NCBI RefSeq assembly: GCF_008189285.1
Contig: NZ_CP043315.1
Location: forward strand, 540,001-572,000
DNA: 32,000 nt
From: Candidatus Saccharimonadota bacterium
Lineage (GTDB): Bacteria; Pseudomonadota; Alphaproteobacteria; CAJXXZ01; 1604HC
Direction: 5' to 3'
Each line of letters begins with the position of its first letter. The first letter of the stretch is position 1. Both the position numbers and the translations under genes were made by a program. The notes under the pieces are model-generated. The model was not told the DNA's origin and searched no databases. It worked only from the letters and a program-made list of their open reading frames with translations. Below are positions 6,482 through 30,065 of this stretch, one piece after another.

Positions 6482-6583
6482 GATTTAAAATATAGATATC
6501 TAATGGAAGCATTATAGATGTAGAAATTTAAAGATTTAAAATATAGATATCTAATGGAAGCATTATAGATGTAGAAATTTAAA
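6482..6583. repeat. Perfect 51-bp direct duplication (2 copies, head to tail)
   Basis: gatttaaaatatagatatctaatggaagcattatagatgtagaaatttaaa occurs at 6482-6532 and again at 6533-6583. It lies in the convergent ruvC / PAAR-like spacer. Confidence 0.9.
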
Positions 6584-6595
6584 ATTCAAATAATA

Positions 6596-6979
6596 TCACA
6601 ACTTCACTTTAACTTGCCCTGCAAAGGATATGCTAATTACTCCACCCCAAATGCAAAATGCTTTAGATTGATCATTCAATGCTGGAATCTCTCCAATTAA
6701 TACATCTGGCTTTCCAGTCACCCATGGAGCAACAACTGCAGGCACACATGGAGCCTGAGTAACAGTTCCTAAACTTGCTATGATAACAGCTTGTACAGCT
6801 GGATTTGCAGGAGATGTGCACATGACAAACGGATGAATATTTGCGATTGGAATATTATCTGCAATTGTTGCTGCTGGCTGCCCACAGGCATTAACTCTTT
6901 TTGCTGGCAAGATCATTAAATCAGATTGAACTGTTCCAAATGTACAATTCGCACAAGCTCCATTACATACTAGATTCAT
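6596..6979 (-). CDS. DUF4280 / PAAR-like domain protein (candidate T6SS or contractile-injection spike tip)
   Basis: ORF track, 127 aa. The pattern C-x2-C-xFG..GQPAAT..N-I-x-PF-x-MC-x-S-x-ANP..APCVP..PW..G-x-PAL..S-x-x-x-C-x-x-GG-x-I-S-I..GQ matches my recollection of the DUF4280 (PAAR-like) family. No extension domain is present. Confidence 0.8.
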   Translation of the reverse strand: MNLVCNGACANCTFGTVQSDLMILPAKRVNACGQPAATIADNIPIANIHPFVMCTSPANPAVQAVIIASLGTVTQAPCVPAVVAPWVTGKPDVLIGEIPALNDQSKAFCIWGGVISISFAGQVKVKL

Positions 6980-9814: not shown

Positions 9815-9902
9815 AATAAAATTCTATCGTGTTCCTAAAATTAATTCAATTCAATTGAAACATTTCCTATATTGAAATGCTAAAAACTCATTATAAATTA
9901 TT

Positions 9903-10625: not shown

Positions 10626-10744
10626 ATTATCACGTTCTTTAATTTAGTAGTAACAGCTCTCAAAAAAGATATCGCCATAAATATTAGAAATTTGTCAAGA
10701 AATTGTATTGATTTTGGAGCGCTGGATTAGTATGATGTTTATGT

Positions 10745-10815
10745 TGGGGTATAGCCAAGCGGTAAGGCATCGGGTTTTGGTCTCGTGATCCTAGGTTCGA
10801 ATCCTAGTACCCCAG
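10745..10815 (+). tRNA. tRNA-Gln (anticodon UUG)
   Basis: Hand-folded. Acceptor TGGGGTA/TACCCCA, T-arm CTAGG-TTCGAAT-CCTAG, and anticodon loop TTTTGGT with TTG at positions 34-36. CCA is not encoded. Confidence 0.85.
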
Positions 10816-10907
10816 CAATTTTCAAATATCATTATATTTCAGCAAAGATAAAATATCATTAGATTTCAATAAAACAAATAAATTATATAAATATTGCCCA
10901 TTTTGCA

Positions 10908-11235
10908 GCTATGAATCGAAAAACGCTTCTCTCTTTCGTTCTTGCTTCGCTATGAATCGAAAATCGCTTCTCTCTTTCGTTCTTGCTTCGCTATGAATCG
11001 AAAATCGCTTCTCTCTTTCGTTCTTGCTTCGCTATGAATCGAAAATCGCTTCTCTCTTTCGTTCTTGCTTCGCTATGAATCGAAAATCGCTTCTCTCTTT
11101 CGTTCTTGCTTCGCTATGAATCGAAAATCGCTTCTCTCTTTCGTTCTTGCTTCGCTATGAATCGAAAATCGCTTCTCTCTTTCGTTCTTGCTTCGCTATG
11201 AATCGAAATTCGTTTCTCTCTTTCGTTCTTGCTTA
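10908..11235 (+). repeat. Tandem array, 8 x 41 bp (gctatgaatcgaaaatcgcttctctctttcgttcttgcttc)
   Basis: The unit ATGs sit at 10911, 10952, 10993, 11034, 11075, 11116, 11157 and 11198, an exact 41-bp period. Six units are identical, the first has 1 substitution and the last has 3. Confidence 0.97.
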
Positions 11236-11274
11236 TCTCATAATTATCATCAACCATTTAATTGCAAAATCACC

Positions 11275-11280
11275 TATAAT
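11275..11280 (+). promoter_or_regulatory. Perfect TATAAT hexamer 6 nt upstream of the dnaQ ATG (possible leaderless-mRNA promoter)
   Basis: The sequence reads cacctataatacgattATG. No Shine-Dalgarno lies between, and no good -35 was seen. Confidence 0.25.
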
Positions 11281-11286
11281 ACGATT

Positions 11287-11928
11287 ATGAATATTATAGT
11301 TCTAGATACGGAAACCACTGGATTAAGCAGATCAACAGATAGGATCGTAGAAATAGGATGCATAGAATTAAATAATTTTGAATATACTGGAAGAAAATTA
11401 CACTTGTATATCAATCCGGAACAAGAAATGGGAGAAGAAGTACAAAAAATTCATGGAATAACTAATCAATTCCTTAAAGATAAGCCTGTCTTTAAAGATG
11501 TATATGAACAATTTCTAGACTTTGTAAAAGACTCAACTATAGTTGCTCATAATGCAAAATTTGATATGGGATTCCTAAACGCTGAGCTTTCAAGGCAAAA
11601 GCAAGAAAATTTAAGTAATAAAGTTGTAGATACTTTAGCTGTAGCGAGAAAAATGTTTCCAGGATCTCCTGCAAACTTAAATGCATTAGCTAAAAGATTC
11701 AATATTTCACTTCATGAAAGAACATTGCATGGAGCGCTGATTGATGCAAAAATATTGTCGAAAGTATATGTATCTCTTTATGCGCCAAAGCAACAGTCTC
11801 TTTTTGTTGAAGAAAAGAAAATAAAAACTGTATCTGGGAAAATTGAAAGATCTGAGAGCAAATTAACTGTTTCTGAAGAAGAAATGGATGCGCATAATAG
11901 TATTATGGATCAATTGAGGCAGAAATGA
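11287..11928 (+). CDS. dnaQ: DNA polymerase III epsilon subunit (3'-5' proofreading exonuclease)
   Basis: ORF track 11188..11928. I place the start at ATG 11287 (MNIIVLDTETTGL), because the upstream 33 codons lie inside the tandem repeat. The Exo motifs DTETTG, HNAKFDMGFL and HGALIDAKIL are present. Confidence 0.9.
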   Translation: MNIIVLDTETTGLSRSTDRIVEIGCIELNNFEYTGRKLHLYINPEQEMGEEVQKIHGITNQFLKDKPVFKDVYEQFLDFVKDSTIVAHNAKFDMGFLNAELSRQKQENLSNKVVDTLAVARKMFPGSPANLNALAKRFNISLHERTLHGALIDAKILSKVYVSLYAPKQQSLFVEEKKIKTVSGKIERSESKLTVSEEEMDAHNSIMDQLRQK

Positions 11929-13016
11929 ATAATGATTGCAATATAGCTGATGATGAAAAAAATAATGCAATTGATAATGCAAAAAACCATGTAATTGATA
12001 ATGCAGTTTTTATAGATAATAAAGTTGATTTAGATAACTTTATAATCACGCTTGAAGCTCCAGAAATAATATATTTTGACACTGAATTTCATCGCAGAAA
12101 CACTTATTGGTCTACATTATGCTTAATACAATTAAAAATAAATAATAAAATTGCCATTATTGATGCTCAAAAAGTAGAAATAAAAAATACTCTTATAGCA
12201 GAAATGTTTGCAAATTCTGAAATTCTTAAAGTATGCCACGCATGCGAACAAGATTTAAACGTTCTTAAACATGCTGAAATTAGCATAGAAAATTGCTTTG
12301 ACACTCAAATAGCAGCTTCATTTTGTCAATTAGGACACAATATGTCATATCAAAATCTTACAAAGCAAATTGTAGATGTAGAATTAGAAAAAAAATACCA
12401 AGATGCAATATGGAATGTTAGGCCACTTACAAAAGAAATGCTCGAATATGCAAAATATGATGTGATGTATCTTGATGTTATATTTAAATCATTATCATGT
12501 AAATTAAAAAATACAAATAGATATGAATGGGTTAAAGAAGAAGTATCAAATATTAAATATAACCCAAAGAAAAAATCTATGATTCATTTGTGGAGAGATA
12601 AATTAGCACAGAAAAAAAATATTCCACCTGGATGGATCCTGAACAATAAAATTCTTCATTCAATATCATGTGAAACAGATAGAAATAAAATAAAATCTAT
12701 GATTCCAGATAAATTGCAAATATACTTGCAGGATATAATGGATATTTTAAATTCCAGCACAAAACAAAAAGATAACATTGATGCTAATTTGCAAAATGCG
12801 CTACATATATTAATTAAAATTATTGCTGAAAATGAGAATATTCCTGCAAGCTGGCTTTGTAGCTCTGAGCAAGTAAGATTTATATGCGCAAATGGAAAAT
12901 TACAATATAAATATGGATGGAGATATGAAATGCTAAATCAATCGATAAATGATTTCTTAAATGACAAAATTAGCATATCATGCAAAAATAACAAAATGCA
13001 TATTAAAAATAAGTAA
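11925..13016 (+). CDS. rnd: Ribonuclease D (DEDDy 3'-5' exonuclease + HRDC-like C-terminus)
   Basis: ORF track. YFDTEFHRRNTYWSTLCLIQL, CHACEQDL and YAKYDVMYL are RNase D motifs. A 4-nt overlap joins it to dnaQ. The N/D-rich N-terminal extension contains an internal direct repeat. Confidence 0.85.
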   Translation: MNNDCNIADDEKNNAIDNAKNHVIDNAVFIDNKVDLDNFIITLEAPEIIYFDTEFHRRNTYWSTLCLIQLKINNKIAIIDAQKVEIKNTLIAEMFANSEILKVCHACEQDLNVLKHAEISIENCFDTQIAASFCQLGHNMSYQNLTKQIVDVELEKKYQDAIWNVRPLTKEMLEYAKYDVMYLDVIFKSLSCKLKNTNRYEWVKEEVSNIKYNPKKKSMIHLWRDKLAQKKNIPPGWILNNKILHSISCETDRNKIKSMIPDKLQIYLQDIMDILNSSTKQKDNIDANLQNALHILIKIIAENENIPASWLCSSEQVRFICANGKLQYKYGWRYEMLNQSINDFLNDKISISCKNNKMHIKNK

Positions 13017-13132
13017 TCCATAATTTTCTAAATTTATTAATTTATATAAAATTTATGATTTATGCCATGAAATTAATTAATATAATTCAAATCATCAAAA
13101 TAAAGAGATAATCCAAAATGGAGAAACGATAT

Positions 13133-13344
13133 TGTTCCACATGGAACAGTAAATTTACAATTGTTTTTTGCTGATAAGTGTTCCACATGGAACAATGAAT
13201 CCCTCAATGCATTCTTCAGAAAATGCTCCACATGGAACATATCTTGTCACATTAATAATTTCATAAACTTTCATTTTTATAAGATATTTTACAAAAGCTA
13301 ATAAATCATTCAACATTCTTAATGCCTTTGTTCCACATAGAACA
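13133..13344. repeat. Cluster of four palindrome-family copies (13133-13148, 13179-13194, 13224-13239, 13329-13344)
   Basis: TGTTCCACATGGAACA occurs twice perfectly. The other two copies are TGcTCCACATGGAACA and TGTTCCACATaGAACA. All lie in the convergent rnd/yebC spacer. Confidence 0.9.
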
Positions 13345-13374
13345 TTTGTTAATTGCTATATTTGATAAGTGTAA

Positions 13375-14073
13375 TTATATATTAGAGCAATTATGCCAAA
13401 CATTTTGAACATCATCATGATCTTCCATTATATCAATGAAATTTTTCACTTTTTCTATATCTTCAGCATCAATTTTACTTGTTGTCTTGTATGCTGATTC
13501 ACAAATAATTTCACTAAATTTGCTTTCAAGCGCATTCTGAATGTTAAATAAATCTGAGAAATTAGCAATTACATTAATTCCATCATCTTCATAAATATCA
13601 TCAATATCAAAATCTGCAAGCAATTCCAATACATCATCTTCACTAACTTTCTCATCATTTGTGCTTTTAATATTTGCCAATGCGATATGCTCAAACATAA
13701 ATGATAAATCATTAAGTCCAGATCCATATTTATTAAATAAAACTTTTAATTCTGTAAATGTTCTATTGCTATTATCTGTAATTCCTTCAATAAGAAATGC
13801 TATTTTCCCAGGCCCATATCCTGTATATTTTACTTCTATATCGGCATTCTTATCAGCAGCTTTATTGATAGCATTTTTAATATTATCTTTGGGCATATTA
13901 GCCCTTCTTGCTGCCTCTAATGCCGTTCTAAGAGAAGGATTCATCTTAGGGTCAGTCCCATTCCGAGCTGCTATAGTAAGAATTTTTCCTATTTTTGTAA
14001 AAACTTTAGCTCTTTTTGAGTCTTGTCTTTCTTTTCTATGTTTAATATTATGAAATTTCGAATGACCAGCCAT
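13375..14073 (-). CDS. yebC: YebC/PmpR family DNA-binding transcriptional regulator
   Basis: ORF track. MAGHSKFHNIKHRKERQDSKRAKVFTK..DPKMNPSLRTALEAARRANMPKDNI is the family hallmark. Confidence 0.92.
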   Translation of the reverse strand: MAGHSKFHNIKHRKERQDSKRAKVFTKIGKILTIAARNGTDPKMNPSLRTALEAARRANMPKDNIKNAINKAADKNADIEVKYTGYGPGKIAFLIEGITDNSNRTFTELKVLFNKYGSGLNDLSFMFEHIALANIKSTNDEKVSEDDVLELLADFDIDDIYEDDGINVIANFSDLFNIQNALESKFSEIICESAYKTTSKIDAEDIEKVKNFIDIMEDHDDVQNVWHNCSNI

Positions 14074-17362: not shown

Positions 17363-18556
17363 ATGAATGAAAATGACACAGTAAATAACTCAAACTCTGG
17401 AAACGACGGAGGAAACAGAGAAAGAAGTTCAGGCGGAGATTTTAGAGGAAATCGTGAAGGCGGCGGAAGTCGCGGAGGTTTCGGCGGCGGACGTGACGGT
17501 GGAAGTCGCGGAGGTTTCGGCGGCGGACGTGACGGTGGAAGCCGTGGCGGATTCGGTGGCGGACGTGATGGCGGAAGCCGTGGCGGATTCGGTGGCGGAC
17601 GTGATGGTGGAAGCCGTGGCGGATTCGGTGGCGGAAGTCGCGGAGGTTTCGGTGGCGGACGTGACGGTGGAAGCCGTGGCGGATTCGGCGGAGAAAGATC
17701 TGGCGGATTCGGTGGCGGACGTGACGGTGGAAGCCGTGGCGGATTCGGTGGCGGACGTGATGGCGGAAGCCGTGGCGGATTCGGCGGAGAAAGATCTGGC
17801 GGATTCGGTGGCGGACGTGACGGCGGAAGTCGCGGAGGTTTCGGCGGCGGACGTGACGGTGGAAGTCGCGGAGGTTTCGGTGGCGGACGTGACGGTGGAA
17901 GTCGTGGAGGTTTCGGTGGCGGAAGTCGCGGAGGCTTCGGTGGCGGACGTGATGGCGGAAGTCGTGGCGGATTCGGTGGAGAAAGATCTGGTGGATTCGG
18001 TGGCGGACGTGACGGCGGAAGTCGTGGCGGATTCGGTGGAGAAAGATCTGGTGGATTCGGTGGTGGACGTGACGGCGGAAGTCGTGGCGGATTCGGTGGC
18101 GGACGTGACGGTGGAAGTCGCGGAGGTTTCGGTGGCGGAAGTCGCGGAGGCTTCGGTGGAAGCCGTGACGGTGGAAGCCGTGGCGGATTCGGTGGCGGAC
18201 GTGATGGCGGAAGTCGTGGCGGATTCGGTGGAAATCGTGATGGTGGAAACAGATTCGAAAATGAAAATTCAAACAGAGGAAACTTCAGAGATAATAACAA
18301 TGAAGAAAGATTCAATAACGAAGATGCAAACGAAAATCAATTCGAGAGCAATATAGTGATTGAAGATGAATCCGAAGAAGGAATTTCAAATGAAAATCAA
18401 TCTGAGAATGAAACATCCAATGAATCTGAAGAAAATTCTAACGATGAATCTAAAGAAGATGAATCCGAAGAAGACTCTAACGATGAATCTGAAGAAGATG
18501 AGTCAGAAGAAGATTCTAACGATGAGTCAGAAGAAGACGCAACAAACAAGGACTAA
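17363..18556 (+). CDS. RGG/GAR-repeat protein with an acidic D/E/S/N-rich C-terminal tail (no other domain)
   Basis: ORF track. ATG is preceded by AAGGGA at an 8-nt spacing. About 25 modules of [12 protein letters not shown] / GSRGGFGG / ERSGGFGG are present. Differences between repeats are synonymous in this frame. The ORF extends about 100 codons beyond the repeats into the tail ..[29 protein letters not shown]. Confidence 0.8.
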
Positions 18557-18935: not shown

Positions 18936-19721
18936 ATAGCAAGACTAAAAAATAAAATAGCATTAATCACAGGCGGGGACATGGAGTTAAAATAGAAACT
19001 ATCTTGCTTGCTTAATTCTAAAGGAGCAACTGTTATTATAGTTGATTTGTTGGAAAATGAAGACCAAACAGTGGCAGATAGCATTAATGGGGATCTTGTA
19101 CTATGTATGTTGCAAATAAATCAGAATGGGTGGATTATAAATGCAATAAAGAATAAATTTGGTTGATTGGATATTTTATTTAATAATGCTAAAATTACAG
19201 GTTTTGATGAGAATTTAGGTCAGGAAAATATTAGATTGGAAACTTGGCATCATGTGCATAAAATAAATTTAGATGACGTATTTTTGAGATGCAAATATGG
19301 AGCTTCTCTTATGAAACAGAACGGTGGATCAATTGTTAATATCATCTAGATTTTGGAGTTGTTGAAATTCCTAGGGCTAGCCGCATATACATAAAGCAAA
19401 GCAGCTGTAAGAAATCACACAAAAACTGTTGCCCTATATTGCGCAGAACAAGGTTATAAAATTCGTTGCAATTCACTTCATCCTGGAGCAATATTAACTC
19501 CAATGTGGGATTCTATGTTTGGAAATGACAAAAAATCTCGCGAAAAAATGATTAATTCAATTGCTTCTGGCGTGCCACTTGGAACTATGGGAGAGCCTAG
19601 CGATGTTGCAAATGCTGTACTTTATCTTGGTTCTGATGAATCAAAATATATAACTGGAATAGAATTAAATATTGACGGAGGAATTCTTGCAGGAAGTCAA
19701 TCTGCGCCAAAAAAGAATTAG
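18936..19721 (+). pseudogene. Short-chain dehydrogenase/reductase (FabG-like) pseudogene
   Basis: A single reading frame translates as (I)ARLKNKIALITGG..GATVIIVD..FG*LDILFNNAKI..GGSIVNII*..AAYT*SKAAV..IRCNSLHPGAILTPM..GEPSDVANAVLYLGSDESKYITG. In-frame stops occur at 18993, 19164, 19347 and 19392. The start codon position reads ATA, 5 nt after an intact AAGGAGA. The glycine-rich cofactor motif is degraded, and one stop falls inside YxxxK. Confidence 0.85.
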
Positions 19722-19968: not shown

Positions 19969-20073
19969 CTTCTCCTTTAAATATCTTCACTAAATTTATA
20001 TCAATTTTTAGCATCATTTTTACAGCATATCGTTTTATCTTATTGGATCTACTTAACAAACTTTTAGATTAAA

Positions 20074-20139
20074 TTTAATTCCATTTTTCATTTCTTTCAT
20101 TTTCGCTTAAGTTTAATTCCGTTTTTCATTTCTTTCATT
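20074..20139. repeat. Direct repeat, 2 x 28 nt at 38-bp spacing (tttaattccRtttttcatttctttcatt)
   Basis: Copies lie at 20074-20101 and 20112-20139 with one mismatch. Confidence 0.7.
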
Positions 20140-20184
20140 CTCAGTTAATATTTAGATTTAATTTTCCATTCAGAAGAATGTTTT

Positions 20185-20823: not shown

Positions 20824-21359
20824 ACTCTGATTGTTCGCATATGATGTGTAGTTGTGTCAATAATCAATGACTCATTTCCCGTAACATTTTGATCATCTTC
20901 AATTCCCATAGCATCAATTGTAATTTCACTAAATTTAGAAGCATTGTCATGAGATGAAATATTTGCACTTGTCATGCATAGTGGCATTTTTACTTCATTT
21001 AAAATTTCTTGAAAAACTCTATTCTCTGGCACTCTAATTCCTATTTTTCCAGTGAATTTTGATCTGGAGTGAAATCCATGAGGAATGTCGCTTTTGATGA
21101 TCAATGTAAAAGGGCCAGGAAATAATCTATCGCACAAATTATGAAGATTTTTTGGAATATTAAATTGATCAAGCATGTTTTTTGTTATATGCAAACTAAT
21201 TGGCTTTTCTATATTTCGATTCTTTATATCAAATAATTTATCAATAGCAGTTTGAGAATCATACCTTGCTCCAATTCCGTATACTGTTTCAGTAGGCAAA
21301 ATTACAATTTCATCATTCAGTATTTTTTGTATTATTTTATTTTTTATTGAATAAATCAT
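20820..21359 (-). CDS. tsaC: YrdC/TsaC-family threonylcarbamoyl-AMP synthase
   Basis: ORF track. The LPTETVYGIGA motif is present, at 179 aa. A 4-nt overlap joins it to rsmE. Confidence 0.85.
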   Translation of the reverse strand: MIYSIKNKIIQKILNDEIVILPTETVYGIGARYDSQTAIDKLFDIKNRNIEKPISLHITKNMLDQFNIPKNLHNLCDRLFPGPFTLIIKSDIPHGFHSRSKFTGKIGIRVPENRVFQEILNEVKMPLCMTSANISSHDNASKFSEITIDAMGIEDDQNVTGNESLIIDTTTHHMRTIRV

Positions 21360-22680
21360 GCGCCATTTTTCTCAAATTATCAGAAGATTCATTAGACTTA
21401 GAGCCTCCAAAAGATTTATTTGACTCAGAGCTGCTAGAAGACTCATTCAATTTATAGTTTTCAGAAATCTCATTCGATTTGGAATTTACAGCAGATTCAC
21501 TTGATTCAGGCTTAACTCTAGAAATATTAATAGAATTATTGCTATTTTCTCCCACTCTTATCTTCTCTTTCATATCTTTGCTATCTTCCTCTGAATGATT
21601 GTGAATATCTTCTGAATTACTATAACTATTCTCTACATTATTATTTTGAGTAATTTGATTAGCCATGCTATTATTTCCAGATTCATACATCATTGATGCT
21701 TTAAGCAAATGTACATCGAATATCTCTTCTGGATATGGGCTCTGATGCAACTCTACAGAGCTTTGAGCCAACATATACCCTAAAGCAATATCTTGCTGAG
21801 AAGCATAATTCTCTCTTATTTGAATTAATAGCTGTCTTATTACATTTAATGAATCTGATCCTTCAGAAATGACTTTTTGCGCAATGGATTTCAACTTATT
21901 ATAAGATTTTTCTCTTATGCATTTTAAAATTTGAGATAAGTTATCTTCAGATGCCAATCCAAGCATTTTTTGCATACTGCTCTCAGTTATTTTCTGTTCA
22001 CATAAAAGAGAAGCTTGTTCCAAAATAGAAATAGCCTGCCTCATTGATCCATAAGATGCAAGAAAAATCATATCTATAGCATTTTTTTCAATGTCTATTC
22101 CATATTGCTTTGATAAATTCTGTATATGCAATTTCATACTTTCTTGCTTAATGCTTTCAAGTGAGATTCTAAAACATCTCGATATAATAGTTTTTGGAAT
22201 TTTATCGATATCTGTTGTGGCCAACACAAATTGGGTGTAACTATTTGGCTCTTCAAGTGTTTTTAGCAACGCGCTAATTGCACTTCTAGAAAGCATGTGA
22301 ACTTCATCTATAATATATATTCTCTTTTTTGCATTAACAGGCCTGTAGACAGATCCCTCAAGAAGATTTCTGATTGAATCAACGCTTGTATTACTTGCTC
22401 CATCCAACTCAAATACATCTGGATGAATATTATCAATACAATCTAAGCAATTTTTGCATACACCGCAAGGCTCATCATTTACATGATCTTTGCAACAAAA
22501 CCATTGCGCTATCAATCTAGCTAAAGTAGTTTTTCCAACCCCAGCTGGACCATGCAATAAACAAACATTCCCCAATAAATCTCGCTTCAATCCATTGTGA
22601 AGTAATTTTACAGCTAACTCTTGACCAATAACATCTCTAAATTTTCTTGGCCTAGCTTGTTTTGGTAAATTACATTTCAT
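21337..22680 (-). CDS. dnaX: DNA polymerase III subunit gamma/tau, with an N/S/E-rich low-complexity C-terminus
   Basis: ORF track. RPRKFRDVIGQE, Walker A HGPAGVGKTT, the zinc module CGVCKNCLDC, IIDEVHMLS, LLKTLEEP and SRC are all present. Confidence 0.92.
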   Translation of the reverse strand: MKCNLPKQARPRKFRDVIGQELAVKLLHNGLKRDLLGNVCLLHGPAGVGKTTLARLIAQWFCCKDHVNDEPCGVCKNCLDCIDNIHPDVFELDGASNTSVDSIRNLLEGSVYRPVNAKKRIYIIDEVHMLSRSAISALLKTLEEPNSYTQFVLATTDIDKIPKTIISRCFRISLESIKQESMKLHIQNLSKQYGIDIEKNAIDMIFLASYGSMRQAISILEQASLLCEQKITESSMQKMLGLASEDNLSQILKCIREKSYNKLKSIAQKVISEGSDSLNVIRQLLIQIRENYASQQDIALGYMLAQSSVELHQSPYPEEIFDVHLLKASMMYESGNNSMANQITQNNNVENSYSNSEDIHNHSEEDSKDMKEKIRVGENSNNSINISRVKPESSESAVNSKSNEISENYKLNESSSSSESNKSFGGSKSNESSDNLRKMAHDLFNKK

Positions 22681-22858
22681 TAAACAATTTTACCCTTCTT
22701 TTTATATTTGTTCAAATGCCCTATTTTTTATATATTTTTGTGTAATTTATTAATTTTATACAATTGCTTTTTGTGCTACTTTTTATTTTCCACCTGTAAA
22801 GTTTTTCCTATTGATATAAAAATTATTAATGATACTCTATGATCAATTAGGAGTTTTT

Positions 22859-23233
22859 ATGACAATATCAACAAAACCAAATTTACAACTTATTTATGTA
22901 TCGGACATTAAGCGTTCCACAGCTTTTTATGAGAAACTTTTTGATGCAAAGCCAATAGTTTCTATGGAGAATTATGTAGCATTTTCAGCTGGAGGAGATT
23001 CAGTATTCTCAATATGCATACGCTTAGAACACGAACCAAAATACGATGCTGAGCGATTCTCTGAAATTGGAATTATGCTTCCTTCAAATGAAGATGTAGA
23101 TCGATTTTTTGAAAAATGTAAAAATGAGCTTAATGCTAAAGTAGTGCAAGAGCCAATAACTGAATGTTTTGGACGCACTTTCTTAATTGCAGATCCTGAT
23201 GGACACATTATTAGATCTTGTCCAGTAGGATAA
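22859..23233 (+). CDS. VOC (glyoxalase/bleomycin-resistance/dioxygenase) family protein
   Basis: ORF track 22829..23233. I prefer ATG 22859, preceded by TAGGAG. The N-terminus LIYVSDIKRSTAFYEKLF and C-terminus FLIADPDGHIIR are typical VOC beta-alpha-beta-beta-beta module ends. Confidence 0.75.
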   Translation: MTISTKPNLQLIYVSDIKRSTAFYEKLFDAKPIVSMENYVAFSAGGDSVFSICIRLEHEPKYDAERFSEIGIMLPSNEDVDRFFEKCKNELNAKVVQEPITECFGRTFLIADPDGHIIRSCPVG

Positions 23234-23370
23234 ATATTTTAGATCTTGCCCAGTAGATTATTAGATATTGCCTAGTAGGATAAATATTTTAGATTTCATT
23301 CAGTAGGATAAATATTTTAGATTTCATTCAGTATGGATGAAATATTTTAGATTTCATTCAATGGGATAAG
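23211..23370. repeat. Degenerate tandem repeat, about 6 copies of ~28 bp (ttagatYtt..cagtaggataaatatt), seeded from the 3' end of the VOC gene
   Basis: The 'ttagat' anchor recurs at 23211, 23239, 23261, 23289, 23317 and 23347. Confidence 0.8.
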
Positions 23371-23432: not shown

Positions 23433-24269
23433 TTAGTTTTGTTGGAAAATCTTATTAATAATCGCAGGGTCATTAAATTCATTTAATATTTCTGCAAAGG
23501 ATTTATTTTCCCACTCTACCGCTTTATGTAACAAGTATGGAGTTGCACTATGAGGGTCATGTTTTTTTAGATATTTCGTTATATCTCTAATCAAGCTATA
23601 TGCATGCTCTCTAGATTTTATTTCATCACTAGATTCATTTTTTACTTCATGAACTATAGACTCACTAATACTTAGTTTGTCTTTTTGATTTTGAAAATCA
23701 TTAATAATTTTTGATACTTTGCTCATTTTTAGATTTTTCTTTTCACAATGAGAAATGATAGATTTAATAATATTAATCAAATCAAGAATTATTCTTGCTT
23801 CATCATCCAGCAATTCACTGCAGTAAGAAGGGGCAATATTTTTGTAGAAATCAGATAATGCATATTTATTATCTCCAGATCCGCATAATGTTAAATTATC
23901 AGGCATCATTTTGCATAATACTTTATCAAGATAATTTGCTGCCTTTTGAAGAGAGTCCTGATCATTGCAATGATTTATCATTATAAAATCAAACATCTCT
24001 AGAGAAATTTGCAAATCTTGCTTTAAATATAAGTTAGCCTCAACAAGCCATACCATAACTTGTAAATCTTTTTTATGCTTAACAAGAATATCTAAACATA
24101 GATTTCTAATTGTAGTCCAATCTTTTTGCTTTGCGCTTCCCCATGCTCCTTTTGGTAAATTATCATGCTTTTGCTCTACCAAAGTTTCTAATTGAACAAA
24201 TAAATTAGTGCCTCTAATATTATCAATTGGATCAATAAGATTTTCTTTTATATCAATTATTTTGAACAT
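23433..24269 (-). CDS. tssA: ImpA_N-domain / TssA-like T6SS protein (short form, 278 aa)
   Basis: ORF track. N-terminal ..G-x-N-x-F..-DW..IRNLCLDILVKHKKDLQVMVWLVEANLY fits the ImpA N-terminal domain. C-terminal REHAYSLIRDITKYLKKHDPHSATPYLLHKAVEW resembles the conserved EPHSP-x-PYLL motif. A 13-nt overlap joins it to tssM. Confidence 0.7.
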   Translation of the reverse strand: MFKIIDIKENLIDPIDNIRGTNLFVQLETLVEQKHDNLPKGAWGSAKQKDWTTIRNLCLDILVKHKKDLQVMVWLVEANLYLKQDLQISLEMFDFIMINHCNDQDSLQKAANYLDKVLCKMMPDNLTLCGSGDNKYALSDFYKNIAPSYCSELLDDEARIILDLINIIKSIISHCEKKNLKMSKVSKIINDFQNQKDKLSISESIVHEVKNESSDEIKSREHAYSLIRDITKYLKKHDPHSATPYLLHKAVEWENKSFAEILNEFNDPAIINKIFQQN

Positions 24270-27200
24270 AATCTTGCTTCTCCTGCTGGGAATTCAGCGG
24301 CATAACTTGGGAAATTTGGCCAATCCATTAGATTGCCTTTAAGCTCTACATCACACCATACTACTAATTCTTTTCCACATCGTAATGGAATCTTCATTTT
24401 TAATTTCTTGCCTTTATTGCAATTTTTTGCACAGAATTTATCTATCAATCTTATTATTCCGAAAAATCCTTTATATTTCATTTCACAAGACCCTCCTTTT
24501 TCAAATGCATAATTGCTCTCTTTAGAAATTTTCATTGTATTGCTGAAATCATAATTTCCTAATTCAATTTCTTTAGGATCCATATTCATGCTAACTTCTT
24601 GATTTCCGAACTTCATATTCCAAATCGCAAGATGATCTCCTAATTTTTCATTTTCTCTATTTGTTCTTAGAGTTATTAAGAATGATCCTGGGTATTTCTT
24701 TATATCTGACATAGACTCTAACCATGGAATAATGCTATTCATTTTATACAAAAACATAGCCCATGTGTATTTATGCTTCAAATAGCGTGATAGTAGGTCA
24801 ATATTCATATTTTTCTCTCGCCAAATAGCTAAGAAATTTCTCGCTTCTTCAGGAGTAACCTCAACATTGGATTTTTTGTTAAAAGGAAATCTATGAGCCA
24901 TATACTTATTGAAATAACTTCTGATTTTCCTATATTGAACTTTAACTGTATTATAATTATCAAATAAACACTTGTTTCCTATAGATGAAATAATATCCAT
25001 TTTCTTTCTATCAAAATAATCCTGATTACTTGAAGATTCTATATCCAAAATTTCACTGCAATCTTTTCTATCCAATACATAAGTTTTAATGAACTTTTCT
25101 ATTGATTTGATTTGATTTGCCTTTCCTTCTCTATTTTTTTCAACAGACTCATTGATTGTTTTCCATTCCAAGAAAGTAGGAGAATAAATTTTCTGACCCA
25201 TATCTGATACTTTGCTCAATAATCGCACTGCAGGCTCAGATAATTCAGATAAATAAGTAATTTGCTCATTTTGCTTTACAAGATACTCTTCAACATCTGC
25301 TTTGCGAATATTCTCGTCAAAATAAAAATCAGACTTTGCTATATTATATAAATCCTTGTTAACTAGCATATGATTCATTTTTTCTATAAATTTTATTGAT
25401 TGCTTTTGTATAGCATTCTTCAAATCAGCAAATAAAACTGCATTTCTAAATCTGATAAAATCTAGAATTTTTGTCAAATACTTTTGCGCTTCTTTAAAAT
25501 TCTGCGAAATATTGGACAACAACGCATCTTCTTTATCGAAAGTATCAAATTGAGTTTGACTATTTGATAAAGTATATGAAATATTTTTCATAATACTATT
25601 GCATGCAACTATAGACATAGCATTTGTTGCTTTTTCATGCTGATAAAGCATGTTGTGATCTGTAAATCTCCTAAATTCATCTATCATCTTGGCAATATTA
25701 GCCAGTTTATTCAAATTCCATTTTACTAAACTATCTTTAATCGCATAATTCATCTCAACTTTTCTATATTTCATAAACGATTTTCCAGCTAGTAAGTTCA
25801 ACACTCCTTGGAATTCAGAAAAATTCTTAGAAAACAGCATCACGCCATTCTCATTTTTATGAAAAATTGATCCAATAATTGGAATACGATGAGTTAGCAT
25901 TCTCTCTTTCAATGAAATAATTCTACTGCTAATTCTTTTCTTCATTTTATGAGCAACTTTAGGTCCCAAAACATGACTATCTTGTATTCTATAAATCATA
26001 TTATTCAAATTATCATTAAAGCCTAGCTTCTCTTCTGAAACCCACATTAATTTCTTGTTATTAAATGAAGAGGCCAAGTCATTGAAATAAGAATTCAGTT
26101 TTTCTGTATCATAATTTTGCTTATCTTCTATTTTTTTTAATGTAGTTTGAATATAAACTATATTTGGTATAATTTTTTCATATTGCAATGCATTATTAAT
26201 AAATTTATCAAACATATATTCCGCTTTAAATATTATTTCTTTTTTATATGATTCAATTGAATTTATATTAAATTTAGCATATTTCAATACATTGCTAAAT
26301 ATCCTCTTGTTTTTCTTTAGATTGTGACTTGCATCAAGATTTAGCAAATTTTTCATAACATATGCCACATCATCAATATTATGCAAATAAGGAATACGTT
26401 GAATTTTGTTATAAATATTCTCTAATTTTACTACTTGCTTTACATATTCATAAAATTCAACAAACTCATCAGATACAAAAGGGTCAAATGCTTTTTTGTT
26501 ATCATTTTTAAAACTCACCTTTCCGGCAATAGCATTTCTAAGATCTAAATTAAATTTACTTGCAATAAATTTGAACAAAATAACATCGCACGCACTTCCT
26601 AACATAAAATTAATGTCATATCTTAAAGAAGAAAACCAAGAAGGTGGAAGAAAATATGAAAACAAACCATCTGCATTAATATTATTCATTGCATTAATTA
26701 GGGAAAGAGATTGATCTTCTAGTATTGAATTATCTAATTCGTCATATGTTCCTTTGTAAACTAATTTCGCATTATGCACAGCAAGTCTTATTCTCTCTAC
26801 ACCTTGCCTAAAATCAGATTTAGTTCTATATATCCTAGAATAAAAATGACTCAAACTAACAACGCCGCCTAAGCACATAATCATAAAAAGATATTGCAAT
26901 ATTCTTACTTTATTTGAATTATCTAATATGCGCCTAGATAAAGAAGAGGCTATGCTTTTTTCCTTAAATATCTTATCAACAAATAAATTGTTAATAAATA
27001 AAATATCATCAGCTGCTTCAAAATCTGAATGATGCATAATTGATCCAAACTCTACACTTTTCAATGATTGCGAAAATTCATGCGAAGCATATGCATTTTT
27101 TCTTGCAGATCCTACAAAATAAATTCCTCTTAACATGAAAGAATCATGCAAAGAATTTCGCTTAAAAATGTAGTATAAAAATTCAGATATCTTACTCCTT

Positions 27201-28096
27201 AGTTTATGCATTTCAAATGGAAAGGCAAATAATCCACCTGGAGATTCAATTTGACTAATCATAATTTCTTGCTGTAGAACTAACAACCTATCAATTACTT
27301 GATCAATAGCATTTTCGATAAATTGAATATCTTCTATTCCAGAAATATAATTTGGATTTGACCATCCAAACATTTCATTTTGCAATTTATATTCCAAAGA
27401 ATTAGCAAAATGAGCAAACCCTGGAATCAAATCAGTATGAGTAATTACAATATATATAGGAATATTAACTCCAAATTTTTTCTGCATATTCCATAGCTTG
27501 ATATAATAATGCTCTGCAATATTACTTAAATTCATCGATTCGTCAAGAATATCATTCATTGAAATAGTTAAAATTAAACTATCGATTGGTCTCTCTGGTC
27601 TGTGATAAGACAATAAATGCAATAACTTATTCCAATTACTATCATCTGATGAAACATACGCCTCTCCAGATGAGAAGAGAGCGCTATTCATTTCAAGCAA
27701 TACAGCATCATTAAAAAAGAACCAATCGCAAAATTCATTTTTTTCAACCAAATCATCAATTGTTCTTTCAAGCTTTAAGCTATTTATTATTGAGGATTTC
27801 CCTGATTTTTCTGCTCCCATAATCATAATAAATGGCAATTTGTATTTAAAATCTTTATTTCCCAAAAATGAATATAAAGTGTGCATATTATTATCAAATG
27901 AATTTTTCATTCTATTATCAAATACATTCTCAAACTTAAACAAATCAGAAATATATTTTTTAAACTTAGTTAAATATATTAATGACACCTTAAATGCTTT
28001 AGGTATTTTGCCATGATGCTTATTTAACAGTATGAAGATAGTAGCTGAAATACTGCTAATTAATACTGTTGGAAGTAAATTATATATTTTGAACAT
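24257..28096 (-). CDS. tssM: IcmF/TssM-like T6SS inner-membrane protein
   Basis: ORF track, 1279 aa. There is an N-terminal hydrophobic helix, Walker A GAEKSGKSS, a second TM segment near aa 400 (ILQYLFMIMCLGGVVSLSHFY) and a large C-terminal region. Position downstream of a DotU gene supports the call. Confidence 0.8.
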   Translation of the reverse strand: MFKIYNLLPTVLISSISATIFILLNKHHGKIPKAFKVSLIYLTKFKKYISDLFKFENVFDNRMKNSFDNNMHTLYSFLGNKDFKYKLPFIMIMGAEKSGKSSIINSLKLERTIDDLVEKNEFCDWFFFNDAVLLEMNSALFSSGEAYVSSDDSNWNKLLHLLSYHRPERPIDSLILTISMNDILDESMNLSNIAEHYYIKLWNMQKKFGVNIPIYIVITHTDLIPGFAHFANSLEYKLQNEMFGWSNPNYISGIEDIQFIENAIDQVIDRLLVLQQEIMISQIESPGGLFAFPFEMHKLRSKISEFLYYIFKRNSLHDSFMLRGIYFVGSARKNAYASHEFSQSLKSVEFGSIMHHSDFEAADDILFINNLFVDKIFKEKSIASSLSRRILDNSNKVRILQYLFMIMCLGGVVSLSHFYSRIYRTKSDFRQGVERIRLAVHNAKLVYKGTYDELDNSILEDQSLSLINAMNNINADGLFSYFLPPSWFSSLRYDINFMLGSACDVILFKFIASKFNLDLRNAIAGKVSFKNDNKKAFDPFVSDEFVEFYEYVKQVVKLENIYNKIQRIPYLHNIDDVAYVMKNLLNLDASHNLKKNKRIFSNVLKYAKFNINSIESYKKEIIFKAEYMFDKFINNALQYEKIIPNIVYIQTTLKKIEDKQNYDTEKLNSYFNDLASSFNNKKLMWVSEEKLGFNDNLNNMIYRIQDSHVLGPKVAHKMKKRISSRIISLKERMLTHRIPIIGSIFHKNENGVMLFSKNFSEFQGVLNLLAGKSFMKYRKVEMNYAIKDSLVKWNLNKLANIAKMIDEFRRFTDHNMLYQHEKATNAMSIVACNSIMKNISYTLSNSQTQFDTFDKEDALLSNISQNFKEAQKYLTKILDFIRFRNAVLFADLKNAIQKQSIKFIEKMNHMLVNKDLYNIAKSDFYFDENIRKADVEEYLVKQNEQITYLSELSEPAVRLLSKVSDMGQKIYSPTFLEWKTINESVEKNREGKANQIKSIEKFIKTYVLDRKDCSEILDIESSSNQDYFDRKKMDIISSIGNKCLFDNYNTVKVQYRKIRSYFNKYMAHRFPFNKKSNVEVTPEEARNFLAIWREKNMNIDLLSRYLKHKYTWAMFLYKMNSIIPWLESMSDIKKYPGSFLITLRTNRENEKLGDHLAIWNMKFGNQEVSMNMDPKEIELGNYDFSNTMKISKESNYAFEKGGSCEMKYKGFFGIIRLIDKFCAKNCNKGKKLKMKIPLRCGKELVVWCDVELKGNLMDWPNFPSYAAEFPAGEARLCSK

Positions 28097-28814
28097 TTTC
28101 TATATCCTTTTGCACAATGCTAATTAAATTAGATATTTCATGAGTAGATTGATACCATAAAATATAACTAATACTTATATAAGACAGCAATGAAATCCCC
28201 AATATCATCATCCAAACTTGATAACTCTTCATATTTGCATTAGATATTTTAATAATTGTATGCTGTTGAGATTGTGGAAATAAATTATCATTATGAATAT
28301 TAGGGTCATAATTATTGACTAATTGAAATAATTGACTCTTATAATCTTTGATAATTCCTCCATCATCCAATCCTCTGTATTTTCCTCTAAAATTTAATCC
28401 CAAACAAAGCAAGTAAGAGCTTCCTATATCATATTTATAAACTGCATTAGAATGAATAAAATTGCTTATATTGTCAAATAATTTTGTCCCACCTATATGA
28501 GTTCCAAAAATTTGCATCTCCAAATTATTTTTTTTCCAAGCCTCTTTATCTTTCCATTCTATATTAATAAAAGTTTCATCAGCAAAAACAGTCATTATAT
28601 AGGAAATTTCCTTATACCCTGATTCTATTAATGTTCCTTCTTCTGCTGCTAAGTCTCTTTTATAGTATATCATTCTCATCAAGATATCTTGTATATCTCT
28701 TGAATTATAGTTATTTTGATTTAATAAGATCAATTCTTTAAATTTCAAAACTTCATTTAAAAACTCTTGAAAACACCCCATTAGGAATGATTGATCTATC
28801 TTATTACTTGCCAT
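28080..28814 (-). CDS. tssL: DotU/TssL-like T6SS inner-membrane protein
   Basis: ORF track, 244 aa. The DotU core is YIMTVFADETFINIEW..W..L..FG..GG..F..YLLCLGLNFRGKYRG, followed by a single C-terminal TM (VWMMILGISLLSYISISYILWY). A 17-nt overlap joins it to tssM. Confidence 0.8.
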   Translation of the reverse strand: MASNKIDQSFLMGCFQEFLNEVLKFKELILLNQNNYNSRDIQDILMRMIYYKRDLAAEEGTLIESGYKEISYIMTVFADETFINIEWKDKEAWKKNNLEMQIFGTHIGGTKLFDNISNFIHSNAVYKYDIGSSYLLCLGLNFRGKYRGLDDGGIIKDYKSQLFQLVNNYDPNIHNDNLFPQSQQHTIIKISNANMKSYQVWMMILGISLLSYISISYILWYQSTHEISNLISIVQKDIENVQNI

Positions 28815-29107
28815 ATCTCAAGGCAAACTTAATATATAAAAGTAAAATTTGTTTTAATTAAATAATTTTTAACTTGCATTTCCCATTTCACTCAAAACAT
28901 TGCTATAACTCAATTCTTTCATTTAGATAAATTTCATTTGCTCTTCTTGCTTTCATTCATTTTACTATATTTTATATAAACACTTCATATAAAACATTTA
29001 TTTGCAATTGCTTCATTATTTGAATAAATTTTTTACTTGGAACATTATGTATAATTCACATCTAAATTAACAATATTAAATTCTTTTTTGATAAATTCAA
29101 TGTTTTA

Positions 29108-29130
29108 TTTTTGTTCCATATGGAACATTT
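29108..29130. repeat. Palindrome family copy with flanks: TTTTTGTTCCATATGGAACATTT (left boundary of the 34-bp array module)
   Basis: Read directly from the sequence. It is the exact reverse complement of 30043-30065. Confidence 0.9.
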
Positions 29131-29188
29131 ATATTTATTGCATTTAACGCTCTACCGCAACTCACCAACGCCCTTTATTATTGCAATA

Positions 29189-30024
29189 ACGAATGATCAA
29201 AGCAAAGCTGAGAATGAGAGAAACGAATGATCAAAGCAAAGCTGAGAATGAGAGAAACGAATGATCAAAGCAAAGCTGAGAATGAGAGAAACGAATGATC
29301 AAAGCAAAGCTGAGAATGAGAATGAATGATCAAAGAAACGAATGATCAAAGCAAAGCTGAGAATGAGAGAAACGAATGATGATCAATGATCAAAGCTGAG
29401 AATGAGAGAAACGAATGATCAAAGCAAAGCTGAGAATGAGAGAAACGAATGATCAAAGCAAAGCTGAGAATGAGAGAAACGAATGATCAAAGCAAAGCTG
29501 AGAATGAGAGAAACGAATGATCAAAGCAAAGCTGAGAATGAGAGAAACGAATGATCAAAGCAAAGCTGAGAATGAGAGAAACGAATGATCAAAGCAAAGC
29601 TGAGAATGAGAGAAACGAATGATCAAAGCAAAGCTGAGAATGAGAGAAACGAATGATCAAAGCAAAGCTGAGAATGAGAGAAACGAATGATCAAAGCAAA
29701 GCTGAGAATGAGAGAAACGAATGATCAAAGCAAAGCTGAGAATGAGAGAAACGAATGATCAAAGCAAAGCTGAGAATGAGAGAAACGAATGATCAAAGCA
29801 AAGCTGAGAATGAGAGAAACGAATGATCAAAGCAAAGCTGAGAATGAGAGAAACGAATGATCAAAAAGCAAAGCTGAGAATGAGAGAAACGAATGATCAA
29901 AGCAAAGCTGAGAATGAGAGAAACGAATGATCAAAGCAAAGCTGAGAATGAGAGAAACGAATGATCAAAGCAAAGCTGAGAATGAGAGAAACGAATGATC
30001 AAAGCAAAGCTGAGAATGAGAGAA
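29189..30024 (+). repeat. Tandem array, about 25 x 34 bp (acgaatgatcaaagcaaagctgagaatgagagaa)
   Basis: The exact 34-bp period was verified at several points (e.g. 29189 to 29223). Most units are identical. Indel variants occur at about 29311-29400 and about 29866. No unique spacers are present. TGA stops close every reading frame on both strands within about 102 bp. Confidence 0.97.
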
Positions 30025-30042: not shown

Positions 30043-30065
30043 AAATGTTCCATATGGAACAAAAA
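30043..30065. repeat. Palindrome family copy with flanks: AAATGTTCCATATGGAACAAAAA (right boundary of the 34-bp array module)
   Basis: Read directly from the sequence. It is the exact reverse complement of 29108-29130. Confidence 0.9.

Follow-up and report, generated by a model that had tools for sequence, protein, structure and literature searches.

The question raised by this locus is why three overlapping genes resembling those of a type VI secretion system (T6SS) membrane complex should lie between housekeeping genes, and whether they stand alone, are the remains of a lost system or belong to one whose other parts are encoded elsewhere. The stretch of DNA analysed (32,000 nucleotides, hereafter the window) comes from Candidatus Cytomitobacter indipagum, a diplonemid endosymbiont of the order Holosporales with a genome of 628 kb, and the TssM and TssA proteins are 100% identical to its products FZC35_02530 and FZC35_02525, respectively; the reduced, host-associated genome suspected in the original prediction is confirmed. 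ORF calling returned the three minus-strand genes at 23433-28814 exactly where they had been placed before.

28080..28814, minus strand: tssL (DotU family, short form), 244 aa, with a Pfam DotU domain.
24257..28096, minus strand: tssM (IcmF family), 1279 aa, with an IcmF-related_N domain.
23433..24269, minus strand: tssA (short TssA), 278 aa, with an ImpA_N domain.

The predicted overlaps of 17 nt (tssL/tssM) and 13 nt (tssM/tssA) follow from these coordinates, and motifs resembling Shine-Dalgarno sequences (AAGGA and AGGAG) are located within the upstream genes of the module. Co-transcription of the three genes is probable, as is coupling of their translation. Gene GC content is 26-28%, and lysine, asparagine and isoleucine together make up 28-30% of each protein, an enrichment that had also been remarked on. 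At 30% GC, the probability of a 1279-codon frame being open by chance is ~1.7e-46. Profile searches against Pfam and NCBIfam upheld all three family assignments (DotU/TssL, IcmF/TssM and ImpA_N/TssA), and the genes are intact, genuine type VI secretion genes encoding TssL, TssM and TssA.

TssL is divergent and AT-biased and misses the NCBIfam TssL/DotU cutoffs. It matches Pfam DotU (PF09850) at 1.7e-22 (80.5 bits, above the gathering score of 27), TIGR03349 at 1.3e-21 (score 77.4, under the cutoff of 89.95) and T6SS_TssL_short with a score of 33.1 (cutoff 180), and among PDB sequences it matches Vibrio cholerae TssL VCA0115 (4v3i, 3.2e-9). A cytoplasmic DotU domain is followed by one C-terminal transmembrane (TM) helix (residues 200-218, from a hydropathy scan) and a periplasmic tail of ~25 residues; TssL carries no peptidoglycan-binding extension. 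At the same hydropathy threshold the single C-terminal helix is kept in four of five orthologues, and identity to the Candidatus Cytomitobacter primus orthologue is 63.5%. A weak match of TssL to the NCBIfam model IcmH_DotU_IVB (NF038228, 2.7e-7) raises the alternative that TssL and TssM are the IcmH (DotU)/IcmF pair of a Dot/Icm type IVB secretion system, which IcmF and DotU homologues also serve. That match, however, reaches 30.2 bits against a cutoff of 50, and it is outscored by both the TssL-specific and the general DotU/TssL models; moreover, the third gene product is a TssA, with an ImpA_N and a TssA C-terminal domain, the module in relatives adjoins tssK, tssB, tssC, hcp and tssE-G, and no T4SS gene appears for C. 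indipagum in the published secretion-system table (George et al., bioRxiv 10.1101/719211). We therefore reject a type IVB assignment, the chance of which we regard as negligible, and treat the genes as T6SS genes throughout.

TssM matches IcmF-related_N (PF14331) at 1.5e-44 (152.7 bits, above the cutoff of 25), its sole Pfam match, there being none to ImcF-related (PF06761) or IcmF_C (PF06744). The NCBIfam model TIGR03348 is matched at 3e-47 over profile positions 85-468 only, with 161.3 bits, under the equivalog cutoff of 388.15. The Walker A motif of the original prediction is present as GAEKSGKS at residues 94-101, with G94, G99 and K100 invariant across eight TssM homologues. A hydropathy scan, the sole basis for these helices, places one (6-24) before the NTPase domain, as had been seen by eye, and another (397-415) after it, pointing to an N-out topology with two TM segments. 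Canonical TssM has three TM segments. The two-helix pattern is common to the clade (homologues P0002-P0019), complete clusters included, and homologue P0021 shows the canonical 2+1 pattern in the same kind of scan. The single N-terminal helix is not a peculiarity of genome reduction, because free-living bacteria with complete contiguous clusters (P0009-P0019) also have it.

Beyond the second TM helix, TssM continues as a periplasmic helical domain of ~860 residues with a terminal beta-sandwich. Sequence and profile searches against PDB sequences recovered no TssM, and when the AlphaFold2 model of residues 420-1279 (pLDDT 82.4) was compared as a whole with the PDB by Foldseek, only helical-repeat noise was returned. 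The model of the C-terminal 261 residues (1019-1279; pLDDT 88.7) had as its best match the C-terminal domain of enteroaggregative Escherichia coli (EAEC) TssM (4y7l_A; E 4.6e-5, probability 1.00, TM score 0.48/0.52), the second match standing at E 0.02. As modelled, the TssM C terminus retains the fold of the domain that binds TssJ in EAEC.

TssA matches Pfam ImpA_N at 5.8e-9 (36.5 bits, above the gathering score of 26.9) and TIGR03363 at 3e-25 (89.6 bits, under the equivalog cutoff of 160.85). The ImpA_N domain occupies residues ~17-83 and a conserved C-terminal helical domain residues ~185-264, the latter aligning with TIGR03363 positions 257-337 and matching the C-terminal domain of Burkholderia TssA in the PDB (6h8e, 1.2e-3; 6h8f, 1.8e-3). 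A homologue search returned only TssA itself and an ImpA-like protein from a Trichorickettsia plasmid, and TssA was compared through a local orthologue alignment, in which a C-terminal motif, HDPHSATPYLL..A.EWE.KSF, is conserved and relatives outside the clade have ~90 more residues in the middle region.

Around the module, the window contains the following features.

6596..6979, minus strand: DUF4280 (PAAR-like, IglG-type) spike-tip gene, a full-length Pfam DUF4280 match (1e-30).
18940-19720, strand not given: short-chain dehydrogenase/reductase (SDR) pseudogene.
21337-22680, strand not given: dnaX, lying beyond the glyoxalase-family gene.
22829-23233, plus strand: glyoxalase-family gene, the immediate neighbour of tssA.
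28815..29187, minus strand: intergenic leader upstream of tssL, containing no ORF and presumed to be the operon promoter region.

The flanks had been described as dnaX on one side and ribosomal genes on the other. In fact dnaX is near but the glyoxalase-family gene adjoins tssA, and on the ribosomal side tssL is set off from rpsE by a 1.5-kb non-coding stretch that includes a tandem repeat of 24 copies of 34 bp. A promoter scan did no better in this AT-rich DNA than on shuffled sequences (45 sites against 45.1 expected), and no promoter was assigned to the leader upstream of tssL. HMMs built from the clade for TssK, TssB, TssC, Hcp, TssE, TssF, TssG, VgrG and a TssJ-like lipoprotein found no further match in the window, in agreement with the earlier claim that tssB/C, hcp, vgrG, tssE/F/G/K and tssJ are absent from it. 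The broader claim that nothing else of a T6SS is visible in the 32 kb was not quite right, because it overlooked the DUF4280/PAAR-like gene at 6596-6979. This gene is solitary, lies 16 kb from the module between ruvC and an Hda-like gene, and is part of the same T6SS as tssL-tssM-tssA.

According to the published inventory, the remaining genes are found elsewhere in the genome. Table S3 of George et al. (2019/2020; bioRxiv 10.1101/719211) gives C. indipagum tssABCEFGHIKLM, vgrG and an IglG/PAAR-like gene, with hcp (TssD) and tssJ alone undetected, and the system of C. indipagum, C. primus and Candidatus Nesciobacter abundans is there termed a 'modified T6SS' without TssD and TssJ. We reject the idea of a stand-alone module on this inventory, in which tssB, C, E, F, G, H, K and vgrG are listed. 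An unclassified variant is likewise not supported, as the T6SS of Holosporales has been described as dispersed in conserved modules, namely tssK-tssL-tssM-tssA, tssB-tssC-hcp, tssG-tssF and ywqK-vgrG (Midha et al., 2021; PMC8163844). A dispersed T6SS, one of the options originally offered, is the one that agrees with both the inventory and the module layout. We consider, with a probability of roughly 0.88, that the module is the tssL-tssM-tssA part of the chromosomally dispersed T6SS of C. indipagum. In the membrane complex, the part that lies in the inner membrane and spans the periplasm would consist of TssL and TssM, and TssA would link that complex to baseplate docking and sheath polymerization. 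The baseplate (TssEFGK), sheath (TssBC), ClpV, VgrG and PAAR-like tip would be supplied from other loci, the gene for the tip being the one in the window, and the system would be assembled and firing. Against this we count the reported lack of TssJ and Hcp in the published inventory (George et al., bioRxiv 10.1101/719211), the scores of TssM and TssA, which are under the NCBIfam equivalog cutoffs, and the undetected Pfam ImcF-related and IcmF_C domains.

Comparison with other genomes indicates how the dispersed arrangement arose. A GTDB scan with a TssM alignment recovered relatives, a scan with the single TssM protein having given no match. In five Cytomitobacter-clade relatives (C. primus, locus L007; OZ247489, L002/L008; OZ247501, L009; CP060235, L001/L010; and L004) tssL-tssM-tssA likewise lies between housekeeping genes, and with C. 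indipagum the module is intact and collinear in six genomes, with TssM identities of 26-58% and the 13-nt tssM/tssA overlap retained in three relatives. Larger Holosporales retain tssK-tssL-tssM-tssA, in some cases preceded by a lipoprotein gene; the four-gene order is seen in Caedimonas (L014), two Holosporaceae (L040 and L076) and L003, and a member of the Paracaedibacteraceae (L028) has tssK-tssL-tssM only, with no tssA match. In ~25 non-Holosporales loci (e.g. L005, L006, L023, L027 and L079) the order lipoprotein-tssK-L-M-A-B-C-hcp-E-F-G-vgrG is contiguous, one contiguous cluster being the arrangement in free-living relatives. This order is the ancestral one, and the module is a fragment of such a cluster. 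A first break, in Holosporales, fell after tssA; the Cytomitobacter lineage later added a second, between tssK and tssL.

The same comparison bears on the proposal that the module is a decaying, non-functional relic of a lost T6SS. The genome is extremely reduced and has 16 reported pseudogenes (George et al., bioRxiv 10.1101/719211), the window itself holds the SDR pseudogene at 18940-19720, the module has lost tssK and the lipoprotein gene, and in one metagenome-assembled genome (L076) tssM is broken into seven ORFs. Yet none of the three ORFs is broken in this genome or in five others at TssM divergence of up to 74%, the motif residues are invariant, a 3.8-kb ORF would survive by chance at 30% GC with a P of only ~1e-46, and sheath, baseplate, ClpV and VgrG are all in the published inventory. 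On sequence conservation the module is under selection and not decaying: across six genomes, with TssM identity falling to 26%, all three genes stay whole and in the same order. We therefore reject the relic suggested in the original prediction, which we now think very improbable. Almost all Holosporineae, including those with the smallest genomes, conserve a T6SS, and it is considered the main candidate for manipulation of protist hosts by these obligate symbionts (review PMC11909080).

The dispersed T6SS that we favour has to accommodate the reported lack of TssJ and Hcp. In 44 related loci, tssK is preceded by a gene from a divergent family of TssJ-like lipoproteins that is invisible to Pfam, and some 'TssJ missing' calls in the clade are explained by this. 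The published absences of TssJ and Hcp were called with standard HMM tools only, and they may be failures of detection, because InterProScan recovered both TssJ-like and Hcp-like genes in another member of the Holosporales (PMC8163844). Searched out to 10 kb from the module, neither the window nor its five close relatives of the Cytomitobacter clade gave a match to the TssJ-like lipoprotein HMM. A database search with the profile gave 114 matches, none named Cytomitobacter, most of the matches being without an organism name; one of them (P0111, on a 608-kb contig) turned out to belong to a complete cluster of the ordinary kind in a larger genome.

A repurposed module, in which TssL-TssM-TssA serves as an envelope conduit or scaffold independent of a contractile tail, could be in keeping with the losses of Hcp and TssJ that have been reported. 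Such a role would also suit the physical separation of the three genes from all other T6SS genes, the TssA shortened by ~90 residues and the suggestion of George et al. (bioRxiv 10.1101/719211) that puncturing is perhaps unnecessary for cytosolic symbionts. We nevertheless think it unlikely. The contractile device is still in use, to judge from the survival of sheath, baseplate, ClpV, VgrG and PAAR-like genes in a 628-kb genome; tssJ-like and Hcp-like genes have been found by InterProScan in another Holosporales member (PMC8163844), and the Acinetobacter T6SS can fire without TssJ (PMC10564176). We speculate, with considerable doubt, that a contractile T6SS may still work in the Cytomitobacter lineage while truly dispensing with the outer-membrane lipoprotein, the TssJ-like gene having gone with the tssK linkage, and perhaps with the canonical Hcp tube too. 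Its membrane complex would depend on a TssM with two TM segments and N-out topology and on a shortened TssA, and no known T6SS envelope module would be more minimal. The TssJ-like lipoprotein profile can be used to re-test Cytomitobacter.

As a discovery the module matters little, since earlier papers on this genome and its order have already reported the genes, assigned them to a T6SS and described the dispersed layout. It is a compact natural example of a contiguous T6SS cluster fragmenting in genome reduction, with each piece under selection, and the details added here (ancestral gene order, the clade-wide TssM with one N-terminal TM helix and the Pfam-invisible TssJ-like lipoprotein family) could help annotators.

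With the canonical TssJ-TssL-TssM complex of T6SS-i (EAEC Sci-1; 4y7l; PMC6517824) the module shares a DotU-fold TssL with one TM helix and a TssM in which an NTPase domain bearing Walker A is combined with a large, helical domain in the periplasm and a beta-sandwich at the C terminus. The module differs in having one TM helix instead of two before the NTPase domain, no Pfam ImcF-related or IcmF_C match, no sequence-level PDB match for TssM and no detectable TssJ. TssA shares the N-terminal ImpA_N domain and C-terminal helical oligomerization domain of short-class TssA (Burkholderia cenocepacia, 6h8e/6h8f/6hs6; Pseudomonas aeruginosa TssA1-like, TIGR03363), but at 278 aa against 353 TIGR03363 profile positions it lacks most of the middle domain. 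That TssL and TssM can form a complex in the absence of the canonical lipoprotein has a precedent in Acinetobacter baumannii, whose T6SS functions with a TssJ-less membrane complex and compensates with TsmK and a C-terminal GS-linker domain of TssM (Kandolo et al., 2023; PMC10564176); Acinetobacter has these partners and Hcp, whereas no such partners were identified here. The tssK-tssL-tssM-tssA of Holosporales (PMC8163844) is the same module, with the same gene order and housekeeping surroundings, from which the Cytomitobacter clade differs in its detached tssK, the absence of the upstream lipoprotein gene and a TssA shorter by ~90 residues. Finally, the system reported by George et al. (bioRxiv 10.1101/719211) is that of the same genome, with the same tssL, tssM and tssA genes and no difference; to its account of the secretion system, which is given without a gene map, TssM topology or ancestral gene order, these three are added here.

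The tssL-tssM-tssA module of the window is already known. TssM and TssA of the window match FZC35_02530 and FZC35_02525 of Candidatus Cytomitobacter indipagum, respectively, at 100% identity; this diplonemid endosymbiont was sequenced by George et al. (bioRxiv 10.1101/719211), whose Table S3 lists for it tssABCEFGHIKLM, tssI/vgrG, cts2N and iglG/PAAR, and who report TssD (Hcp) and TssJ as missing. A scattered arrangement of T6SS genes in conserved modules, among them [tssK-tssL-tssM-tssA], was described for Holosporales by Midha et al. (2021; PMC8163844). Since both inventory and layout are in the literature, the module is an already described part of an already described T6SS with dispersed genes, and not the unclassified variant that had been considered.

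Three overlapping T6SS-like genes had been read from the minus strand at 23433–28814, and ORFs lie at exactly those coordinates, with overlaps of 17 nt (tssL/tssM) and 13 nt (tssM/tssA):

28080–28814, minus strand, tssL (DotU family), 244 aa
24257–28096, minus strand, tssM (IcmF family), 1279 aa
23433–24269, minus strand, tssA (ImpA_N family), 278 aa

The family assignments of the original prediction were borne out by profile searches, in which all three proteins exceeded the Pfam gathering scores (TssL against DotU, 80.5 bits, gathering score 27; TssM against IcmF-related_N, 152.7 bits, gathering score 25; TssA against ImpA_N, 36.5 bits, gathering score 26.9), and the Walker A motif reported for TssM is present as GAEKSGKS at residues 94–101. 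The NCBIfam matches fell under the equivalog cutoffs for TssM (TIGR03348, 3e-47) and TssA (TIGR03363, 3e-25) and under the cutoff of the DotU/TssL model for TssL (TIGR03349, 1.3e-21). Among PDB sequences, TssL matches Vibrio cholerae TssL (4v3i, 3.2e-9), the last ~50 residues of TssA match the C-terminal domain of Burkholderia TssA (6h8e/6h8f, ~1e-3), and TssM has no match. The genes are of 26–28% GC in a window of ~30%, and the proteins are, as had been noted, rich in lysine, asparagine and isoleucine (28–30% of residues in each); at this composition the chance of a 1279-codon ORF staying open is P ~1.7e-46. SD-like motifs precede both internal starts (tssM and tssA) within the respective upstream gene, consistent with translational coupling. 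The same two starts share an identical 12 nt, ATGTTCAAAATA (MFKI; minus strand, 28085–28096 and 24258–24269), each copy sitting within the 3' end of the preceding gene, which may be a coincidence or a common coupling signal. An IcmF/DotU pair of a T4BSS is ruled out as the identity of these genes: IcmH_DotU_IVB scored under its cutoff, TssA adjoins the pair, and in relatives the module abuts tssK, tssB and tssC.

Homologous loci were gathered by exact-protein look-ups and an alignment-based GTDB scan (72 loci from the scan) and annotated by tblastn, with reference T6SS genes from two complete clusters, L005 and L006. Three tiers of T6SS gene layout emerged. About 25 loci, from Acidobacteriota, Nitrospinota, Gemmatimonadota, Rhodospirillales (Insolitispirillum, Novispirillum) and others, carry a contiguous cluster of a small lipoprotein gene followed by tssK-tssL-tssM-tssA-tssB-tssC-hcp-tssE-tssF-tssG(-vgrG). 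The larger Holosporales carry (lipoprotein)-K-L-M-A only, without sheath genes downstream (Caedimonas L014, Paracaedibacteraceae L028, Holosporaceae L040 and L076, and L003; in L028, tblastn matched K-L-M and gave no match for tssA). The Cytomitobacter clade carries L-M-A only, flanked by unrelated housekeeping genes (the window, C. primus L007, OZ247489 L002/L008, OZ247501 L009, CP060235 L001/L010, and L004).

Amino acid identity to the window proteins within the Cytomitobacter clade
C. primus (L007): TssL 63.5%, TssM 57.8%, TssA 48.2%
L010: TssL 46.9%, TssM 38.7%, TssA 38.1%
L004: TssL 32.1%, TssM 25.9%, TssA 27.3%

In every member of this clade the L, M and A ORFs are intact; L007–L009 share the 13-nt overlap of tssM with tssA. 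On this evidence, one ancestral cluster has fragmented stepwise, each piece being held under selection. Of the readings first offered, dispersal stands; 'stand-alone' gives way to a fragment of an ancestral contiguous cluster, and a relic is rejected on account of the conservation of the module and the published inventory.

Two further observations concern individual homologues. In L076 (MAG Holosporaceae HK-STAS-PROT-86, CP060261.1), tssM is broken into seven consecutive ORFs of 112–432 aa (9809–13878) and tssK, tssL and tssA appear intact; tssM is here either pseudogenised or split by assembly frameshift errors. The sole non-self database match of the window TssA is P0137, an ImpA-like protein on a plasmid of the Rickettsiaceae symbiont Ca. 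Trichorickettsia mobilis (2e-4, 28% identity over 37% of the query), which hints that the T6SS of Holosporales is linked to the one carried on plasmids by protist symbionts of the Rickettsiaceae; George et al. (bioRxiv 10.1101/719211) call the source of the latter unknown.

Pfam searches of 29 other ORFs of the window, together with clade-specific HMMs, found no tssK, tssB, tssC, hcp, tssE, tssF, tssG, vgrG or TssJ-like gene, and to that extent the earlier statement that the 32 kb hold nothing else of a T6SS was correct; it had missed a PAAR-like gene (Pfam, 1e-30), the one that Table S3 lists as 'iglG/PAAR'. Two adjoining, overlapping genes encode leucine-rich-repeat proteins:

6596–6979, minus strand, DUF4280 (PAAR-like) gene
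4066–4890, plus strand, leucine-rich-repeat protein (LRR_8, 1.5e-27)
4887–5594, plus strand, leucine-rich-repeat protein (LRR_8, 1e-24)

It is unlikely that the membrane module has been repurposed to work without a contractile tail, because sheath, baseplate, ClpV, VgrG and PAAR-like genes are kept (mostly per Table S3) in a genome of only 628 kb; we retain the reading of a dispersed T6SS. Twenty-two LRR_8 proteins have been reported for C. indipagum, and George et al. (bioRxiv 10.1101/719211) connect leucine-rich-repeat proteins with T6SS effectors as well as with eukaryotic protein interactions.

A 397-aa ORF at 17363–18556 (plus strand) has 49% GC in this 30% GC genome, gave no Pfam match, and encodes ~24 repeats in a glycine-arginine-rich stretch, then an acidic Ser/Glu/Asp tail. 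We take the glycine-arginine-rich stretch to resemble the GAR/RGG domains of eukaryotic nucleolar proteins, and the product could be a eukaryote-mimicking effector. At 18940–19720 (plus strand), where no ORF of ≥80 aa was called, a sequence resembling a short-chain dehydrogenase with in-frame stops was read by eye and is probably a pseudogene; the syntenic neighbourhood in L002 has an intact adh_short gene.

For a genome of 628 kb, the window carries unusually many tandem repeats, the smaller arrays being mostly intergenic:

29188–30024, ~24 tandem copies of the 34-bp unit AACGAATGATCAAAGCAAAGCTGAGAATGAGAGA (TRF score 1141)
10908–11234, 41 bp x 8, running ~45 nt into the RNase T ORF from its called TTG start (11188)
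23207–23369, 28 bp x 5, just past the 3' end of tssA
20062–20170, 38 bp x 2.8
6482–6590, 51 bp x 2.2

tssL and rpsE lie 1.5 kb apart, and the 34-bp array takes up most of that distance, with one copy of the palindrome TGTTCCATATGGAACA on either side of it (29112–29127 and 30046–30061). As the spc operon halts after rpsE, with no rpmD, rplO or secY beyond, the array may mark a rearrangement breakpoint. The palindromic core TTCCAYRTGGAA occurs nine times in the window (5722, 10298, 13135, 13181, 15958, 19738, 19955, 29114 and 30048) against 0.01 expected; copies read directly extend to TGTTCCAYRTGGAACA. It looks like a dispersed intergenic element, lying between ORFs in all copies except that at 10298 (within ORF 9903–10625), and might be a site bound by a protein or the hairpin of a terminator; a terminator-like score was obtained for one copy.

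TssL has a single TM helix (residues 200–218) followed by a tail of ~25 residues, and no peptidoglycan-binding extension. TssM has, as originally observed, only one hydrophobic helix ahead of the NTPase domain (6–24), with another behind it (397–415), from which an N-out topology with two TM helices is predicted. The pattern is common to the homologues P0002–P0019, including proteins of the complete clusters L005 and L006, and is thus a clade trait rather than an outcome of reduction; TssM P0021 has the canonical two N-terminal helices. Pfam finds nothing in the 860-residue periplasmic part, which AlphaFold2 (17-sequence alignment) confidently models as a long helical domain with a beta-sandwich at the end (pLDDT 82.4). 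Residues 1019–1279, modelled separately (pLDDT 88.7), have as their sole significant PDB match the C-terminal domain of EAEC TssM (4y7l_A; E 4.6e-5, prob 1.00, TM 0.48/0.52), so that TssM keeps the domain that in E. coli binds TssJ. TssA keeps the ImpA_N domain and the conserved C-terminal motif HDPHSATPYLL..A.EWE.KSF; compared with relatives from outside the clade, its middle region is ~90 residues shorter.

In 44 related loci a lipobox protein of 150–180 aa is encoded directly upstream of tssK (L003 4280–4954; L014 6871–7416; L005 7012–7527; L006 622–1125; and ~40 further loci). It has no above-threshold Pfam match, the Caedimonas member giving weak TssJ signals (TIGR03352, 2.3e-4; PF12790, 0.021), and is probably the clade's divergent TssJ, missed by standard annotation. 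Since at least two loci of Holosporales type (L003, L014) have it, 'TssJ missing' calls in Holosporales can be detection failures. Neither the window nor any Cytomitobacter-clade genome has such a gene at up to 10 kb from the module, and in a database-wide profile search none of the 114 matches, most of them without an organism name, was named Cytomitobacter. Just upstream of the TssJ-like gene, L003 (3137–4258) and L079 (9131–9988) carry a gene for a SPOR-domain (peptidoglycan-binding) protein, which may anchor the system in the cell wall, TssL being without a peptidoglycan-binding domain. The T6SS of Acinetobacter baumannii can work without TssJ (Kandolo et al., 2023; PMC10564176), and a 2025 review ranks the T6SS first in conservation among the secretion systems of the group to which C. 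indipagum belongs (PMC11909080).
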